From Eubacteriales bacterium (GTDB lineage Bacteria; Bacillota; Clostridia; Oscillospirales; CAG-272), in contig JAZOUO010000068.1 of assembly GCA_045658225.1 (NCBI GenBank), positions 4,509 to 68,508 of the forward strand: a DNA stretch of 64,000 nucleotides. Reading direction: 5' to 3'. The position numbers were made by a program, and so were the translations under genes. The notes under the pieces were generated by a model, which made no database searches, was not told where the DNA came from, and was given only the letters and a program-made list of their open reading frames with translations. Of this stretch, positions 4,238 through 20,118 are shown piece after piece. The stretch's first letter is position 1, and every line of letters starts with the position of its first letter.

Positions 4238-5755
4238 TTATTTTTCAAGCCATACGGACGGAGAGAAAAGAAGGAGCATGGGGAAAAGCTCAAGTCTGCC
4301 GAAAAGCATATCAAATGAAAGCACCAGCTTCGACGCGTAGGAGAGTGAAGCGAAGTTGCTTGTAGGGCCTACGTCACCAAGACCAGGACCTATATTATTT
4401 ATACATGCGGCAACTGCCGAGAACGTAGTCTCAATGCTTCTGCCGTCAAATATTGCTACTAAAAGGAACGAGCCGAAGAATATAAATGCGTATGTAATCA
4501 TAAAGGCAAAAACGCCTCTTTGAGTGTCCTTGTCAACTGTCTTTCCTTCAAAGTGCACCGCCTTAACGCGGCGGGGATGTATCATATGACGCACTTCTGC
4601 CATAGTGCTCTTGAGGGCTATTACGAGTCGGCTTATCTTTATGCCGCCGCCCGTTGATCCCGCGCACGCGCCGATGAACATTATTATCAGAAGCACGGTC
4701 TTTGAGAGATTGCCCCACAGATTAAAGTCATCCGAGGCAAAGCCCGTGGTGGAGATTATGGTGGATACCTGGAAAACCGAGTGTCGCAGAGTGTCTGCAA
4801 TATTTCCAAATCGCTCAAACGTATCAAAGGCGATGAATGCGGTAGCACCGACAACAACACCAACAAACCAGCGAAGCTCCTCGGAGAACAGAGCGGAAAG
4901 AGCCTTGCCCGTGATGATAAGGTAATAAAGGTTGAAATTGATCGCGAAAAGCAACATGAATACAGATAGCACCCAAATGCAGTATTCGGGATGAGCGACA
5001 GTGCCGCCAAACGAAACCATGCTGTCGGGCCAAATAGAGAAGCCTCCAGTGCCTGCGGTTGAGAAGGCCGTAGTCAGCGCCTCGTAAAGATCCATGCCAC
5101 CGAAAAGCAGGAGAGCGGTACAGACAAGCGTCATTACAATATAAATGCCGTACATTATGCCTGCGGTCTTTTTAATTGTGGGAACAATTTTATCGACCTT
5201 CGGACCGGGCATTTCCGCACGCATGACGTGAACAAGACGCGAGGACTTCATATCCTGCTGAGGCATTACCGCTAGTACGAATACAAGCACTCCCATACCG
5301 CCTATCCAGTTTGTAAAGCTACGCCAGAAGAATACACCTCTCATTCCCATCATAGCAGATTCCGAGCTCAACTCAGGTGTCCAGAGCTTTGCGAATGCGT
5401 CTGCACCGAGCACGCTTGAGCCCGTCGTGGAAAATCCTGAAGCAGTCTCAAAGAACGCGTCGATATAATTAGGGATAAGCCCCGAAATTACAAAAGGAAG
5501 CGCACCGAAAAGAGACAGGACTATCCAGGACAATCCTACCGTTATGAAGCCCTCTTTGACTCCAAGGGTCTTGTCCGCGGGCTTGAATATTACCATCAGC
5601 GCGCCCAGAACAAGCAGGGCAGATATGGGAATGACGAAAGCCCAAATATTCAGAAATTCACCGTATATAAGCGATACAGTCAAAGGGAGCAGCATAAGCG
5701 CGCCCTCTGCAAGTAAGAGCTGACCGGTGATATACCGTATCATTTTGAAATTCAT
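4238..5755 (-). CDS. trkH: TrkH/KtrB-family potassium uptake membrane protein
   Basis: 505-aa polytopic membrane protein with repeated selectivity-filter-like TGGFS/STGGG segments. It lies directly downstream of trkA. Confidence 0.85.
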   Translation of the reverse strand: MNFKMIRYITGQLLLAEGALMLLPLTVSLIYGEFLNIWAFVIPISALLVLGALMVIFKPADKTLGVKEGFITVGLSWIVLSLFGALPFVISGLIPNYIDAFFETASGFSTTGSSVLGADAFAKLWTPELSSESAMMGMRGVFFWRSFTNWIGGMGVLVFVLAVMPQQDMKSSRLVHVMRAEMPGPKVDKIVPTIKKTAGIMYGIYIVMTLVCTALLLFGGMDLYEALTTAFSTAGTGGFSIWPDSMVSFGGTVAHPEYCIWVLSVFMLLFAINFNLYYLIITGKALSALFSEELRWFVGVVVGATAFIAFDTFERFGNIADTLRHSVFQVSTIISTTGFASDDFNLWGNLSKTVLLIIMFIGACAGSTGGGIKISRLVIALKSTMAEVRHMIHPRRVKAVHFEGKTVDKDTQRGVFAFMITYAFIFFGSFLLVAIFDGRSIETTFSAVAACINNIGPGLGDVGPTSNFASLSYASKLVLSFDMLFGRLELFPMLLLFSPSVWLEK

Positions 5756-5764
5756 ATTTTACCC

Positions 5765-7132
5765 TCACAAAAGAATATCTTCGAGCGTATACAAGCGATC
5801 CTTGGCGGTGACAACTACTACACTGTCTCCCACCTCAAGGGTCGTCTGTCCGTTGGGGTATAGGACGTCTCCGCCGCGTATGATTGCCGCGACAAGAAGA
5901 TTTCTTTTGAGCTTCAAGTCCTTGAGCTGTATGCCCGTCTGACTGAAGTCGCCGCCGACGTCGAATTCCAATGCCTCGACCTTGTTATCCGCAAGCTTGT
6001 AGAGGGTTTTTATGGTGCTTTGAGATGCGTTGCTCTTGAGATTTGCAAGACCGCGGACGTATCTTATTACGTGGGTTGCGGTTATGTATTTAGGATTGAT
6101 ATCCGAGTCAATTCCCGCGGCTTCGGAAAGCTTTCCAAAGGACTGTGCAGTAACTCGGGCTATTACCTTGTCAACGCCGTGATTTTTTGCGAACATAGAT
6201 ATGATGATATTGTTCTTGTCATCAGATGTCATAGCTACGCAAGCATCGGCAGAGTCGATACCCTCCTCGACTAAAAGATCGGGGTCTGCGGCGTCTCCGC
6301 AGATTATCTCTGCCTTAGGGAAGAGGTCGGCGAGCTCGCGGCATACCTCTTCGTCACGCTCAATTATTGTCACACGGAAGCCGCCTGACGAGAGCATATT
6401 GGCGAGATATCTTGAAATACTGTTGCCGCCAATTATAAACACGCCCTTGATTTTTTTGACGAATATTCCAAGCTTTACAAAAAAGTCGGATATATCCTTA
6501 CGGGATGCTGTCATTGAGATATAGTCTCCCTCGCGAATGATATAATCACCACCCGGGATGACTACCTCGTCGCCGTGTCTGACGGCGCAGATGAGGACGT
6601 TTGTGGAATATTTTGAACGAAGCTCCATAAGCTTTTGGCCTACAAGGGGATGGTCATCGTCGATATAAATGTCAAGTACCTCAACGCGTCCCTTGGCAAA
6701 CTTATCAAGCTTCATAGCGACAGGGAAGCGGATGATTCTCGCCGCCTCGCGCGCCGCCTCGTATTCGGGGTTAACAATGAGGTCTATTCCAAGCTCCTCG
6801 CACATATAATTCCTTTGCTTTAAGTACTGAGGATTGCGGACTCTTGCTATTGCGTGAGCTGCACCGAGACGCTTTCCTATCATACAGCAGAGCAGGTTGA
6901 GCTCGTCCTCGGTAGCTACCGATATGATCACATCGCAATTCTGCACACCGGCCTCTCGCTGAATATCAACGGAAGCTCCGTTGCCTACCACCCCGAAAAC
7001 GTCGTATTTATTAACTACTTCATCAATAAGGGAGGGATTTTCGTCAATTACTGTGACATTGTGCCCCTCTGCACATATGGAAGATATCAAGGTGTCGCCA
7101 ACAACACCGTTTCCAATAACAACTATTTGCAT
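5765..7132 (-). CDS. trkA: Trk system potassium uptake protein TrkA (two RCK/NAD-binding halves)
   Basis: Duplicated Rossmann starts MQIVVIGNGVVG and VFIIGGNSISR. Length is 455 aa, and it sits in an operon with trkH. Confidence 0.9.
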   Translation of the reverse strand: MQIVVIGNGVVGDTLISSICAEGHNVTVIDENPSLIDEVVNKYDVFGVVGNGASVDIQREAGVQNCDVIISVATEDELNLLCCMIGKRLGAAHAIARVRNPQYLKQRNYMCEELGIDLIVNPEYEAAREAARIIRFPVAMKLDKFAKGRVEVLDIYIDDDHPLVGQKLMELRSKYSTNVLICAVRHGDEVVIPGGDYIIREGDYISMTASRKDISDFFVKLGIFVKKIKGVFIIGGNSISRYLANMLSSGGFRVTIIERDEEVCRELADLFPKAEIICGDAADPDLLVEEGIDSADACVAMTSDDKNNIIISMFAKNHGVDKVIARVTAQSFGKLSEAAGIDSDINPKYITATHVIRYVRGLANLKSNASQSTIKTLYKLADNKVEALEFDVGGDFSQTGIQLKDLKLKRNLLVAAIIRGGDVLYPNGQTTLEVGDSVVVVTAKDRLYTLEDILL

Positions 7133-16491: not shown

Positions 16492-17481
16492 ATGAAAAAA
16501 GCAGGTAAAATAATAGCTATAATAGTAGCGGCAATACTTTTGCTGGTTTTTGTTGTGATCAGCGCGTTTTCGATATTTGACAGAATTAAATACCGTTCTT
16601 TCTACAAAAACGCAGACAAAGCTTTCGCTATAGGTGGCTTGTGGGAGGGCGCTGTTCAACAGGGATTTGACTATTCCGATGAGCTTGGACTTTACATATA
16701 TTCTGCATATATGAAGGACCACTCCACGTCGAGAATATATATTGCCGACAATGACGGAAACACAAGATTTGTTGAGCTTAAAAACGTAGACGGCTCGTGT
16801 CACACGGGACATGTTGGCGGACTTTCCTTTGGCGGAGATTATATTTACGTCACCGCGTCGTCCGACAATAAGATAATGATGTTCAAGACAAACGACGTGC
16901 TTGATGATGACGGTGTTGCCACCGCATGCGAAGATTTTGAGGTCTGTGTTTCGTCTGCGTACGTTTACGTAAGAGACAACACTCTCTACACGGGAGAATT
17001 TTATATTGCCGAGGACTATGAAACTCCCGAGGACCACAGATTTACCACTCCTGCGGGTGATCAGAATACCGCAATAATGGGAGTTTACACGCTTGGTGCT
17101 GACGGCAAGCCCGTATCCGCTGATCCTGATTACATTATGTCTACTCGTGGACAGGTGCAGGGAATGGCGTTTGACTCACAGGGCAGACTTATTCTATCAA
17201 CCTCTTGGGGACTTAATCCCAGTGGAATATACGTTTACGACCTTGACAAAGTAGCAAACGGTACTGTGACGCTCAACGGTAAGCAAGTTGCTGTAAAGTA
17301 CGTTGACAGTTCTTGCCTTGACGCAACTATAGTTGCGCCTCCTATGGCAGAGGAGCTTGTTTATAAGAACGGTAAGCTTTTTATAATGAACGAGTCCGCG
17401 TCCATGAAGTATATCTTTGGTAAGCTGACAAGCGGAAATCACGTCTGGGCGTATGATTACAACGCGCAGATTGGCGACTAA
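16492..17481 (+). CDS. membrane-anchored hypothetical protein, possibly beta-propeller-like
   Basis: Good RBS and an N-terminal TM segment IIAIIVAAILLLVFVVISAF. Recurrent strand-like motifs: GHVGGLSFGGDYIYV, VQGMAFDSQGRLILSTS and ELVYKNGKLFIMNES. I recognised no family. Confidence 0.6.
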   Translation: MKKAGKIIAIIVAAILLLVFVVISAFSIFDRIKYRSFYKNADKAFAIGGLWEGAVQQGFDYSDELGLYIYSAYMKDHSTSRIYIADNDGNTRFVELKNVDGSCHTGHVGGLSFGGDYIYVTASSDNKIMMFKTNDVLDDDGVATACEDFEVCVSSAYVYVRDNTLYTGEFYIAEDYETPEDHRFTTPAGDQNTAIMGVYTLGADGKPVSADPDYIMSTRGQVQGMAFDSQGRLILSTSWGLNPSGIYVYDLDKVANGTVTLNGKQVAVKYVDSSCLDATIVAPPMAEELVYKNGKLFIMNESASMKYIFGKLTSGNHVWAYDYNAQIGD

Positions 17482-17486
17482 TAGCG

Positions 17487-17536
17487 GCAATAAATAAAAA
17501 TCGCTCTGCAACTGCAGAGCGATTTTTATTTATTGC
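17487..17536. terminator. bidirectional terminator formed by a 24-bp perfect inverted repeat
   Basis: gcaataaataaaaatcgctctgca-ac-tgcagagcgatttttatttattgc, between convergent genes. Confidence 0.8.
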
Positions 17537-17742
17537 TCGTCCTTGGGGGGAGTTGTGAGCTTTATGATGACGGACTGGATAAGCTTGATTATAAGAATGA
17601 TTATGATGATAACCACAAATATTGCAAGCATACCCTTCCAGAGTACGTTAAGCGAAACCTTTATTGTTTCCCAATTCATAGGACTAAGGCTGTCAAACAT
17701 TCCGCCGAGGACATTAAAGTATATCATGTTAAGAAAATTCAT
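17530..17742 (-). CDS. small single-pass membrane protein, possibly OadG-like
   Basis: Strong RBS AAGGAGG 16 nt after the oadB stop. 70 aa with the TM segment MLAIFVVIIIIILIIKLI. The OadG assignment rests on context only. Confidence 0.55.
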   Translation of the reverse strand: MNFLNMIYFNVLGGMFDSLSPMNWETIKVSLNVLWKGMLAIFVVIIIIILIIKLIQSVIIKLTTPPKDEQ

Positions 17743-17758: not shown

Positions 17759-18886
17759 TTAGCGTGCTATAAATCCGATGATGAGACCGCCAACTACCGC
17801 GGATGCTATCTGACCTGATACGTTAGCTCCTGCCGCGTGCATAAGCAGGTGATTGCAGGGGTCTTCCTTGATACCCATCTTTTCAACTACTCTCGACGCC
17901 ATGGGGAATGCGGAAATACCTGCCGCGCCTACCATGGGGTTTATCTTTTCTTTTGAGAAGAGATTCATTATCTTTGCGCACATAATCCCGCCAAACGTGT
18001 CGAATACGAACGCGAACAGACCAAGAACCATAATAATGAGAGTCTCAACTCTCATAAATGCTTCGGCTTTCATCTGGAAAGAGATCGTAAGACCGAGAAG
18101 GAGAGTTATAATGTTGGAGAAAGATGTCTGCGCCGTGTCGGAAAGCGATCCGAGGACGGTACATTCACGCAAGAGATTACCGAACATAAGCATACCGACC
18201 AGCGACAGTGAGCCGGGGGCGATAAGTCCCGCAACTATGGAAACTGCGATGGGGAATATGATCTTTAAGACCTTGGGAACCTGCTTTGCGTTGTAGTGCA
18301 TTCTTATTAGACGTTCCTTTTTTGTGGTGCAAGCCTTGATAACTACGGGCTGCACTATGGGCACAAGCGCCATATACGAGTACGCCACCACCATAATAGG
18401 TCCGACGTAGTTTGACATAAGCCTCTGTGCAACCATGATGGACGTAGGTCCGTCAGCCGCGCCTATAATTGCGATAGACGCCGCATCGTTTACGGGGAAG
18501 CCTATCATTGCCGCGAGTATCATTGTGACAAATATACCGAGCTGTGCAGCGCCGCCAAGTATAAAGAGTTTGGGGTTGGCAAGCAGTGGGCCAAAGTCGA
18601 TCATTGCACCGATACCTATAAACAGAAGCAAAGGCATAGCCTCTCCTGCCTCAATTCCGACCTTGAAGAGCTGGGCGATAATTCCCTCGCCCTCGACTGC
18701 AACCGCCGAGAAGGGAAGATTGACAAGTATTGCACCAAAGCCCATGGGGAGCAGAAGCGCGGGTTCCATATCCTTTTTGATTGCGAGGAATATCAGTACG
18801 GTGCCGATTATCCACATAGCTACCATTTTCCAGGTGAGCGCGCCAAAGCCTTCGGTCAGAAAGCTTAATTCATTAAGAAAGTCCAT
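17759..18886 (-). CDS. sodium ion-translocating decarboxylase beta subunit (OadB/GcdB/MmdB family)
   Basis: 375-aa polytopic protein. The N-terminus ...WKMVAMWIIGTVLIFLAIKKDMEPALLLPMGFGAILVNLP and the segments GIGAMIDFGPLLANP and IIGAADGPT are typical of the family. Confidence 0.85.
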   Translation of the reverse strand: MDFLNELSFLTEGFGALTWKMVAMWIIGTVLIFLAIKKDMEPALLLPMGFGAILVNLPFSAVAVEGEGIIAQLFKVGIEAGEAMPLLLFIGIGAMIDFGPLLANPKLFILGGAAQLGIFVTMILAAMIGFPVNDAASIAIIGAADGPTSIMVAQRLMSNYVGPIMVVAYSYMALVPIVQPVVIKACTTKKERLIRMHYNAKQVPKVLKIIFPIAVSIVAGLIAPGSLSLVGMLMFGNLLRECTVLGSLSDTAQTSFSNIITLLLGLTISFQMKAEAFMRVETLIIMVLGLFAFVFDTFGGIMCAKIMNLFSKEKINPMVGAAGISAFPMASRVVEKMGIKEDPCNHLLMHAAGANVSGQIASAVVGGLIIGFIAR

Positions 18887-18902
18887 TTCTACCTCCGCAA
18901 GT

Positions 18903-19064
18903 AAAAATTCGGGTATGCGCTAAGTCATACCCGAATGAAAGCATAGTTTTCTCATAATATAACCTGGCATACGTATATTATGAGTCTCGCAATTTAATAC
19001 AAGCCAAGCTCTTATGAGCCGGTGATTGTTGACTTGCAACGCAATGCGCCTGCTACTCCCTCAT
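18903..19064 (-). promoter_or_regulatory. structured 5' leader: riboswitch-like aptamer plus intrinsic terminator (attenuator)
   Basis: On the minus strand: AUGAG-GGAGUAGC...UCAACAAUCACCGGCUC...GCGAGAC-UCAU (19064-18980). An alternative 11-bp hairpin follows (18951-18984). The terminator is UUCGGGUAUG-N8-CAUACCCGAA-UUUUU (18935-18903), directly before the RBS GGAGG. Confidence 0.6.
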
Positions 19065-19078
19065 TTTTTATTCAAATT

Positions 19079-19107
19079 ATTTTAACACGGCAACGGGATT
19101 TTGTCAA
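19079..19107 (-). promoter_or_regulatory. promoter of the leader-oadB operon
   Basis: On the minus strand: TTGACA (19107-19102), 17-nt spacer ending in TGt, TAAAAT (19084-19079). Confidence 0.65.
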
Positions 19108-19122
19108 CCAAAAATGATAAAA

Positions 19123-19338
19123 TTATTCGCCGTCGGGCGCGATGTATTCCGTAATGTCAATAGCCGAGAGCTTTTGCTGGTTAAATTTGCCCTTTGTGCG
19201 CTCGAAATACTGGATATTGTTGCGGAGCATAAACACAAACTGATTATTAGGGGTTCTGCCCTCAGCCTCGGATATATAGATGAGCTTGCGGAGCAAATCC
19301 TCGGAGAGACGTACTGTTATTTCGGGTTGTTTTTTCAT
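19123..19338 (-). CDS. small ribbon-helix-helix (Arc/CopG-like) DNA-binding protein
   Basis: 71 aa. ITVRLSEDLLRKLIYISEAEGRTPNNQFVFMLRNNIQYFE fits a beta-strand/helix/helix RHH pattern. Its start overlaps the upstream stop (ATGA). Confidence 0.55.
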   Translation of the reverse strand: MKKQPEITVRLSEDLLRKLIYISEAEGRTPNNQFVFMLRNNIQYFERTKGKFNQQKLSAIDITEYIAPDGE

Positions 19339-19901
19339 AATTTCCAGTCCTTTTTCTGTGGTATTTCGGCGCGTCTTGCCGCCGAGTGATTAAGTCTTTT
19401 TATGTGAGCAAAGGCCTCGGGCGTGGTCTCAAAATACACTGCGCACTGATCCTCGCCCTCGGAAAAAATACCGTAGTAGATGTTGTCAGAATCAAGTGAG
19501 GAAATGAAAATATAGTCCTTGTGCAGAGTTTTGCCCTCCATTCTCTCAGACGCCTCGGGCGTGAAAAGACCCACTTCGTAAAAGGACTTTATATCAAGCT
19601 CGAGAGAGATTTTTCTGCGGGACTTTGCCACTATCTTGGTTATTGTGAGTCTGTTGTCCAAAATGACACTTTCAAACTCTATATGCGTAAATCTCCAAGT
19701 GAAAAATATAAGAAGTATCTCTACTCCTACGACTGCTATCAACGCAGGTATGAGCAGCATTGAGCCGTAGAATAGATTTACCGACAGTATGATTGCGGCG
19801 ATGGGAAAAAGTATATATGCCATAATGAAAAGCATCTTTTTTGTCAGCAGTTCCCCTGTGGCTTTCTGCTTGACTATATATTCGTAGCTTCCGTTTGCCA
19901 T
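19335..19901 (-). CDS. hypothetical two-TM membrane protein with a soluble C-terminal domain
   Basis: The ATG at 19901 is preceded by GGAGGG; the track start at 19937 is a GTG. TM hairpin LFIMAYILFPIAAIILSVNLF / LLIPALIAVVGVEILLIFFTW. I recognised no family. Confidence 0.55.
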   Translation of the reverse strand: MANGSYEYIVKQKATGELLTKKMLFIMAYILFPIAAIILSVNLFYGSMLLIPALIAVVGVEILLIFFTWRFTHIEFESVILDNRLTITKIVAKSRRKISLELDIKSFYEVGLFTPEASERMEGKTLHKDYIFISSLDSDNIYYGIFSEGEDQCAVYFETTPEAFAHIKRLNHSAARRAEIPQKKDWKL

Positions 19902-20118
19902 ACGCCCTCCGTTAAGATAAATATCTATAAGCGCCACGCAAGAAGCTGGCGACTGTAAACATTATAACACACAAAATGTCTTTTTTCAATCTTGTGCGGC
20001 AAAAAATATAAAAAAATAAATAAAAACGGACAAAACCGTCTTGATATTTCACCATGTGTGTAGTATAATTATGATAAGCCGCAGATGCGGCGAATAAATG
20101 ATTATGCGAGGACACAAA

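Follow-up and report, generated by a model that had tools for sequence, protein, structure and literature searches.

A probable three-way-junction yybP-ykoY-type riboswitch upstream of an orphan oadB gene in a Eubacteriales bacterium

The canonical yybP-ykoY manganese riboswitches (RF00080 in Rfam; L. lactis yoaB, E. coli mntP and alx, B. subtilis yybP and ykoY) form a four-way junction and act as ON switches of an exporter regulon (MntP, TerC, P-type ATPases). A more compact form has been described upstream of mgtA in S. pneumoniae (Martin et al. 2019, NAR 47:6885, PMC6649816): it folds into a three-way junction, with an invariant UNAAA where helix P4 would stand, the 5' side of loop L1 is conserved, the 3' side of L1 is an invariant AGA preceded by a variable base, and the C-A metal ligands of loop L3 are invariant. 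This RNA compacts in the presence of Mn2+ or Ca2+ and activates read-through (PMC6649816; review PMC11672702); in vitro, its aptamer has a higher affinity for Ca2+ than for Mn2+ (PMC6649816), but induction by Mn2+ is much stronger, in vitro as well as in vivo (PMC6649816; PMC11672702). We describe here a leader found in a stretch of 64,000 nt ("the window") from contig JAZOUO010000068.1 of a Eubacteriales bacterium (GCA_045658225.1, positions 4,509-68,508 of the forward strand). It precedes oadB, a gene coding for the beta subunit of a Na+-translocating decarboxylase. We think that this leader is probably (with a probability of roughly 0.7) a riboswitch of the already described three-way-junction, P4-less yybP-ykoY manganese subtype, working as a transcriptional ON switch. 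Positions are those of the window, and all the elements of the leader are on its minus strand.

The aptamer (18980-19064) presents its elements in the same order as the mgtA riboswitch, namely P1, L1, P1.2, P2, P3.1, L3 and P3.2. The 5' strand of P1, AUGAG (19060-19064), pairs with CUCAU (18980-18984). It is followed by the 5' side of the conserved metal-site loop L1, GGAGUA (19054-19059), which is included in GGGAGUAGC (19052-19060) and carries the GGGAGUAG conserved in the mgtA type. Then come the P2 hairpin GCGC-AUU-GCGU (19039-19049), the 5' strand of P3.1, UGCAAGUCA (19030-19038), loop L3, ACAAUCACC (19021-19029), the P3.2 hairpin (19007-19020) and the 3' strand of P3.1, UGGCUUGUA (18998-19006). 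The C-A of L3 (19028-19027, within CAAU) would be, judging from the alignment, the equivalent of the metal-coordinating C40/A41 of L. lactis, following the description in PMC6649816. The junction UUAAA (18993-18997) corresponds to the UNAAA described in the same paper in place of P4, and is followed by the 3' strand of P1.2, UUGC (18989-18992), and by the 3' side of L1, GAGA (18985-18988). The latter forms with the next base the G-AGA-C (18984-18988) which reads C-AGA-C in close orthologues, the AGA being constant and the preceding base variable, as in the N-AGA of mgtA. Only 13 nt (18985-18997), containing no hairpin, separate the 3' strands of P3.1 and P1, so that there is neither a P4 nor a four-way junction.

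The initial annotation of this DNA, made from the sequence by a model, had quoted the leader at 19064-18980 correctly and had rightly remarked that it resembles yybP-ykoY RNAs, that it lacks one hairpin and that its junction is probably three-way. The hairpin in question, designated there by UUGACAUA, is presumably P4, which we take to lie outside the L1-L3 metal site in L. lactis. The window also matches what we take to be the L. lactis blocks, GGGGAGUAGC ... AAGUCGUCAAUUC ... GGCUU ... GCAAGAC. With the canonical four-way form the window thus shares the docking loops L1 and L3; it differs from it by the absence of P4 and by the lack of any RF00080 match at E<=10. It resembles S. pneumoniae mgtA also in the intrinsic terminator that follows the aptamer, in its presumed ON logic and in belonging to a family that controls PII-type ATPases. 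The differences with mgtA are the L3 loop (AACAAUCACC versus the streptococcal (C)GUCAAUA), the expression platform, which in the window is a relay of four helices (P1, a second hairpin, an antiterminator and a terminator), as far as the text of the S. pneumoniae paper shows, the host, an Oscillospiraceae relative and not a Streptococcus, and the gene, oadB.

To place the leader within a family, one genome per species was scanned with the pattern GGGAGTAGC..AAGTCNNCAAT..GCNAGAC, for which no chance match is expected in the window. This yielded 84 loci, about 60 of which share the P4-less layout of the window: P1, GGAGUAGC, the P2 hairpin, P3.1 GCAAGUC, L3 AACAAUCNC, the P3.2 hairpin, CUGGCUUGC, UUUAAAUU, GCGAGAC and P1'. 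They come mainly from metagenome-assembled genomes (MAGs) of Oscillospiraceae, Lachnospiraceae and other Clostridia, with the addition of one Bacteriovoracaceae MAG and one Lactovum. In a plain MAFFT alignment of 66 homologues, in which the junction consensus UUUAAAUU is kept throughout, the structure of five helices (P1, P1.2, P2, P3.1, P3.2) has 92.4% of its cells paired and double-sided changes at 18 of its 26 pairs (153 cells); none of 500 shuffles was as good, and slid controls reached 23-40% pairing. Four of the five pairs of P1 and all four pairs of P2 show such changes. In a second set of 35 oadB-associated RNAs (see below), retrieved independently and aligned by fitting to the family model, 24 of the 26 pairs have double changes. 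The pairings AUGAG/CUCAU and CAAG/CUUG that the initial annotation had proposed to close P1 and an inner helix (the latter being part of P3.1) therefore exist and covary across the 66 homologues. The invariance of the 5' side of L1 and of the C-A of L3 in the pattern-retrieved set is partly imposed by the retrieval pattern itself; in the 35 oadB-associated RNAs the 5' side of L1 stays GGGAGUAG or GGGAGUAA, together with U[UG]AAA and NAGAC, and the C-A of L3 is retained in most.

A covariance model built from 60 family sequences, with the whole oadB clade excluded (and whose E-values are only rough), gives the window aptamer 77.1 bits (E 4.7e-18), a score in the middle of the range of the family, and finds no other match in the 64 kb. 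Combined with the covariation, this bears out the homology with yybP-ykoY RNAs. Rfam, on the other hand, does not recognise the leader: the whole window has no match in Rfam 15 at gathering score, and the 301 nt around the leader have none at E<=10 for RF00080, DUF1646 (RF03071), nhaA-I or RF02617. The initial annotation would have abandoned its proposal had there been neither a covariance-model hit nor covariation of the helices; the Rfam half of this turned out negative, and the helices do covary. The RF00080 model has 177 positions and a gathering score of 45 bits, a score reached by none of the three-way-junction or compact four-way relatives scanned (the best, L015, has 17.4 bits), and none of the scanned oadB-associated RNAs attains the Rfam threshold either. 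The negative result on the window says little, since RF00080 also fails related compact yybP-ykoY-like RNAs, and we read it as a gap in the coverage of the model and not as evidence against homology. The compact four-way RNAs that miss the RF00080 gathering score precede TerC and other genes, and are found in Bacillaceae (L026, L041, L088), in Desulfitobacterium (L040), in L015 and in about ten Bacillota MAG loci; it appears that short-armed versions generally escape RF00080. One streptococcal version appears to have entered Rfam under the name of an sRNA: the consensus of RF02617 (SSRC10, "Streptococcus sRNA 10") has the same order of blocks, GGGAGUAGCA, P2, P3 with CGUCAAUA, CUGAAACA, GCGAGAC and a terminator. 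RF02617 matches only the Lactovum member (L032, 3634-3739, upstream of a gene for a P-type ATPase of 915 aa), below its gathering score (31.8 versus 56 bits). We infer from these sequences that the "sRNA" entry probably represents the mgtA-type three-way-junction riboswitch of streptococci.

The leader, about 186 nt long, has a fold energy better than all of 200 shuffles (z = -3.7), and starts from a sigma-70-type promoter (19079-19107) present as the initial annotation had it: TTGACA (19107-19102), a 17-nt spacer with an extended TG, and TAAAAT (19084-19079), that is, 11 of 12 consensus positions plus the extended TG. Both hexamers are unchanged across five orthologous leaders. After the aptamer comes a hairpin of 11 bp, CUCAUAAUAUA / UAUAUUAUGAG (18951-18984), hereafter H2, already noticed in the initial annotation, whose first 5 nt are the 3' strand of P1 and which is conserved in orthologues. 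An intrinsic terminator (18903-18936), with a stem of 11 bp (18936-18907), a loop of 8 nt and a U tract, shows compensatory changes in orthologues and, as had been observed, directly precedes the ribosome-binding site GGAGG (18892-18896) of oadB (ATG at 18886). The loop and upper 3' arm of H2, GCCAGGUUAUAU (18957-18968), can pair with the 5' arm and loop of the terminator, GUAUGACUUAGC (18919-18930), to form an antiterminator (18919-18968) in which 11 of 12 positions pair (-12.3 kcal/mol, z -2.67). A shorter pairing of this kind had been suggested between GUAUGC in the H2 loop and GCAUAC in the 3' arm of the terminator. The complementarity is present in the sequence, but L001, L005 and L008 lack the GUAUGC loop, and this pairing is not a conserved antiterminator by itself, merely the outer end of the longer, conserved one. 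The latter is kept, as read by eye, with different sequences in L001 (GCAGAGUUAUAU / GUAUGGCUUUGC) and L059 (GUAAAGUUAUAU / GUAUGGCUUUAC).

Two kinds of platform can be recognised in the family. In 21 of 64 members L1 and the 3' strand of P1 are themselves the 5' arm of the terminator, which is the classical ON design. In 38, including the window, the 3' strand of P1 begins H2, a separate terminator follows, and the loop and 3' arm of H2 are complementary to the 5' arm and loop of this terminator (the type is unclear in the five others). In this second type the mean duplex energy is -11.5 kcal/mol for native pairs, whereas shuffled pairs average -6.6 and cross-member pairs -8.0 kcal/mol; z is below -2 in 27 of the 38. 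The nascent RNA of the window, when allowed to fold freely, has H2 and the terminator as its minimum free energy structure (-26.2 kcal/mol); when CUCAU is held, as it would be in a locked P1, this becomes the antiterminator, with no terminator (-17.9 kcal/mol). The same flip is predicted by equilibrium folding in four of five members of the window clade. We thus suggest the following scenario. By homology, L1 (GGAGUA / GAGA) and L3, carried by the legs P1-P1.2-P2 and P3, would dock around a divalent cation, Mn2+ or possibly Ca2+ as for S. pneumoniae mgtA, and the weak P1 of 5 bp would then be held. Once P1 is held, H2 cannot use CUCAU; 18957-18968 would be free to pair with 18919-18930, the terminator would not form, and oadB would be transcribed with the small gamma-like gene that follows it. 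Without metal, H2, which would act as an anti-antiterminator, would form, as would the terminator, and transcription would end around position 18903.

How constant is the association between this RNA and oadB? All the orthologous loci whose OadB is at least 91% identical to that of the window (L001, L005-L008, L059) have the leader, with the promoter hexamers, the aptamer core, the arms of H2, the terminator and the ribosome-binding site conserved, and with compensatory changes in P3.2, P3.1 and the terminator. In L001 and L005 the stem of P3.2 is swapped from GGCUC/GAGCU to GCCAC/GUGGC in a fully compensatory manner. The leader is absent in three orthologous loci at 80-85% identity (L002, L003 and L009), where the family model finds no match; in L002, oadB starts only 24 nt after a conserved upstream open reading frame (ORF) of 73 aa. 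In the one-genome-per-species scan OadB was found downstream of the RNA in the window clade only. These leaderless loci had suggested a one-off capture of oadB in a narrow clade, an idea overturned by a search of metagenomes with the OadB protein of the window. This search gave 80 loci with homologues 62-77% identical, and the family model matches in 42 of them, 28-177 nt upstream of oadB and always on the coding strand (21.7-58 bits); at least seven further loci have, by eye, degenerate copies. The association is thus not accidental, since the leader is kept with compensatory changes in the closest orthologues and related RNAs precede more than half of the more distant ones. These RNAs covary strongly, P1.2 included (GC/GC becoming UC/GA, CC/GG or CU/AG), but L3 varies more among them (CAACAUC, CGUCAUC, CGUCAGAAC and others). 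This variation is not specific to oadB, because an L3 variant, ACAGCAC, is also found in the leader of an mntP-led operon, L158. We found no link of yybP-ykoY RNAs with oadB in the literature, which we covered only in part; the association of the three-way-junction riboswitch with oadB is apparently widespread in gut Clostridia and new to the literature.

Several of the oadB loci have other arrangements. In L119 (1723-4140) oadB is translationally coupled to an upstream gene for a Na+/glutamate symporter (gltS; PF03616), with no riboswitch, and the same sequence appears to lie upstream in L129, L138, L166 and L169. In six others (L114, L134, L136, L145, L167, L170) oadB is preceded by a different conserved hairpin, GGGGRAGCUUC ... 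GCGAAGUCAACUUCUYCCCC, located about 40-130 nt upstream of the start (around 2880-2990 in L167, for example), with an internal UCAA bulge and abutting the ribosome-binding site. No Rfam model matches this hairpin, whether at gathering score or at E<=5, and it could represent a further regulatory RNA of this gene family. Known riboswitches were also encountered near oadB homologues or pattern hits (L103 4481-4650; L160 2439-2662; L146 767-850; L149 6159-6241; L015 4352-4442), namely lysine, T-box, two ZTP and c-di-GMP-I; the lysine riboswitch of L103 sits just downstream of oadB.

The genes that follow the three-way-junction RNAs are those expected for a divalent-cation exporter regulon. The first gene downstream belongs to the Na+-coupled CaCA exchangers (Na_Ca_ex) in 27 cases, which makes it the commonest class under this subtype, to the PII-type cation ATPases in 16, to MntP in eight and to ABC ATPases in three, with two genes of unknown nature. 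None of the targets found here for the three-way-junction group is TerC, which the canonical class controls most often; it is preceded by mini four-way versions. Two operons bring oadB together with exporter genes: L158 (2212-7041) carries a riboswitch (77.9 bits), mntP, oadB, an ORF of 56 aa and a P-type ATPase gene, and L133 (158-2463) carries a riboswitch of the three-way-junction kind, Na_Ca_ex and oadB. In L003, Na_Ca_ex is divergent from oadB-gamma, which is followed by a Cation_efflux (CDF) gene.

The OadB protein itself (17759-18886, 375 aa; PF03977, E 3.5e-143) aligns with the Salmonella beta subunit (6IVA chain A) with an E-value of 5.5e-88. Residues E41, D145, S325, R332 and N355 align with E40, D203, S382, R389 and N412 of 6IVA, among which D203, S382 and N412 belong to the Na+ site, and every homologue examined keeps them. 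R304 and N311, which are reported to be essential in the Salmonella protein (PMC7274780), correspond to Ser247 and Thr254 in the window. We considered the loss of these two residues as a possible mark of non-decarboxylase OadBs associated with the riboswitch, and rejected it: the positions vary across the whole group of proteins 62-100% identical, independently of the presence of a riboswitch. The small gene that follows (17530-17742, minus strand) codes for a gamma-like membrane protein of 70 aa (a weak match to PF04277, OAD_gamma, E 7.6e-5, below the curated cut-off) and is probably co-transcribed with oadB; about half of the related loci that were checked also have a small ORF after oadB. 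As the initial annotation had stated, oadB is locally an orphan: no gene for an alpha (carboxyltransferase) subunit or a biotin carrier lies within about 15 kb of it in the window, and none is found downstream of oadB in ten related riboswitch-bearing loci, where the genes are unrelated.

The rest of the neighbourhood can be described briefly. Upstream of the leader (19123-19937, minus strand) are ORFs of 200 and 71 aa without Pfam family, and downstream, on the opposite strand (16492-17481, plus), an ORF of 329 aa, also without Pfam family. ORFs of similar size occupy the same positions in close relatives (the upstream pair in L001, L002, L005 and L008, the downstream one in L001, L005 and L008). 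Genes for TrkH / TrkA K+ uptake (4238-7132, minus strand), about 12 kb from the riboswitch and with no obvious link to it, are followed by a cluster of fucose isomerase, sugar ABC transporter and AraC genes.

Several points weigh against the assignment to the manganese subtype and should be acknowledged. RF00080 does not detect the RNA, and the identity of the ligand would follow from homology and gene context. The leader is wholly absent from some oadB orthologues, the three loci mentioned above. In the window subclade (window, L008, L059) L3 carries one additional C at its 3' end and P3.2 has a C-U mismatch at its base, these being the only peculiarities. Only eight of the 38 relatives with an H2-type platform are predicted to flip at equilibrium when P1 is held, and control by the relay is therefore presumably kinetic. 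Finally, OadB is not a known transporter of Mn2+ or Ca2+, and pumping by a beta subunit requires a carboxybiotin donor, which is not encoded within about 15 kb. The mismatch and the extra nucleotide of L3, as well as the fact that close orthologues such as that of L002 manage without a leader, would be at home in a structured RNA that has lost its response to a ligand (a riboswitch copy in decay, a protein-binding site or a constitutive attenuator). We consider this highly improbable, as every core nucleotide is intact, the score is in the middle of the family, and promoter, aptamer, H2, antiterminator and terminator are all kept with compensatory changes among loci whose OadB proteins are 91-100% identical.

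The choice of the ion deserves more discussion. The physiological ligand in gut Clostridia could be Ca2+ rather than Mn2+, with the same aptamer and the same ON mechanism: 43 of about 60 family members precede genes of the Na+/Ca2+-exchanger family or of PII-type (Ca2+-pump-like) ATPases, a Na+ pump suits Na+/Ca2+ exchange (L133), and the in vitro preference of the S. pneumoniae aptamer points the same way. Yet eight members precede mntP, L158 joins mntP with oadB, the adenine whose N7 confers Mn2+ selectivity is retained, and induction in S. pneumoniae is far stronger with Mn2+, so that we hold this version to be unlikely, if the most serious of the competitors. Less likely still, in our opinion, is a yybP-ykoY derivative that would have shifted to Na+ (or Li+) and control the Na+ pump in the manner of the Na+-I riboswitches (DUF1646, RF03071; White et al. 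2022, PMC9337991), ion-sensing ON switches that sometimes precede genes for oxaloacetate decarboxylase (pycB / oadB type). The same group of OadB does occur in operons of the Na+ cycle, such as gltS-oadB, and L3 is altered (CAUC, CAGAAC, CAAGC) in distant oadB-associated RNAs. But the core of L1 and L3 in the window is that of the mntP-, Na+/Ca2+-exchanger- and P-type ATPase-associated members, an L3 variant also occurs before the mntP of L158, and the known Na+ and Li+ aptamers are architecturally unrelated. The Na+-I riboswitch, for instance, consists of two extended hairpins and responds to another ligand. We also rejected the leader as a Na+-I, DUF1646 or nhaA-I RNA, as none of these models matches it, even at E<=10. 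The initial annotation had seen in the truncated architecture and the unusual gene either a variant class or a changed ion specificity. Since the three-way form with UNAAA for P4 is already published for S. pneumoniae mgtA (PMC6649816) and the metal-site nucleotides of L1 and L3 are unchanged, nothing supports either proposal. This calls for some caution in general: the loss of a helix, even with an unexpected gene downstream, is not in itself a sign of a new ligand.

If the leader is indeed a manganese-type riboswitch of the three-way-junction subtype, what would be the meaning of oadB under its control? From the gene context, an excess of Mn2+ or Ca2+ would turn on the exporters, and additional beta subunits of the Na+ pump would be made alongside, probably in order to keep up the Na+ gradient on which Na+/Ca2+ (Mn2+) exchangers depend. 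The operons of L133 and L158 are the best support for this rationale. A bolder and rather doubtful version would be that the orphan OadB and its small partner are a dedicated and so far unrecognised component of Mn2+/Ca2+ detoxification, possibly across many gut Clostridia, either as a stand-alone elevator-type cation transporter (without alpha subunit) or as a Na+ pump induced for the specific task of energising Na+-coupled divalent-cation exchangers. In addition, the L3-variant aptamers found before the more divergent oadB genes might have shifted to a different ion.

Our results also bear on the family as a whole. An abundant riboswitch subtype (about 60 species representatives retrieved with one strict pattern, and more than 40 metagenomic oadB leaders) is invisible to the Rfam manganese model, and annotation pipelines therefore miss the three-way-junction riboswitches. 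An oadB that stands alone but for its small partner, with no alpha subunit gene nearby, falls in a regulon of Mn/Ca excess beside MntP, CaCA exchangers and P-type ATPases, and this placement leads to the hypothesis that sodium-motive force may be coupled to the efflux of divalent metals in anaerobic gut bacteria.

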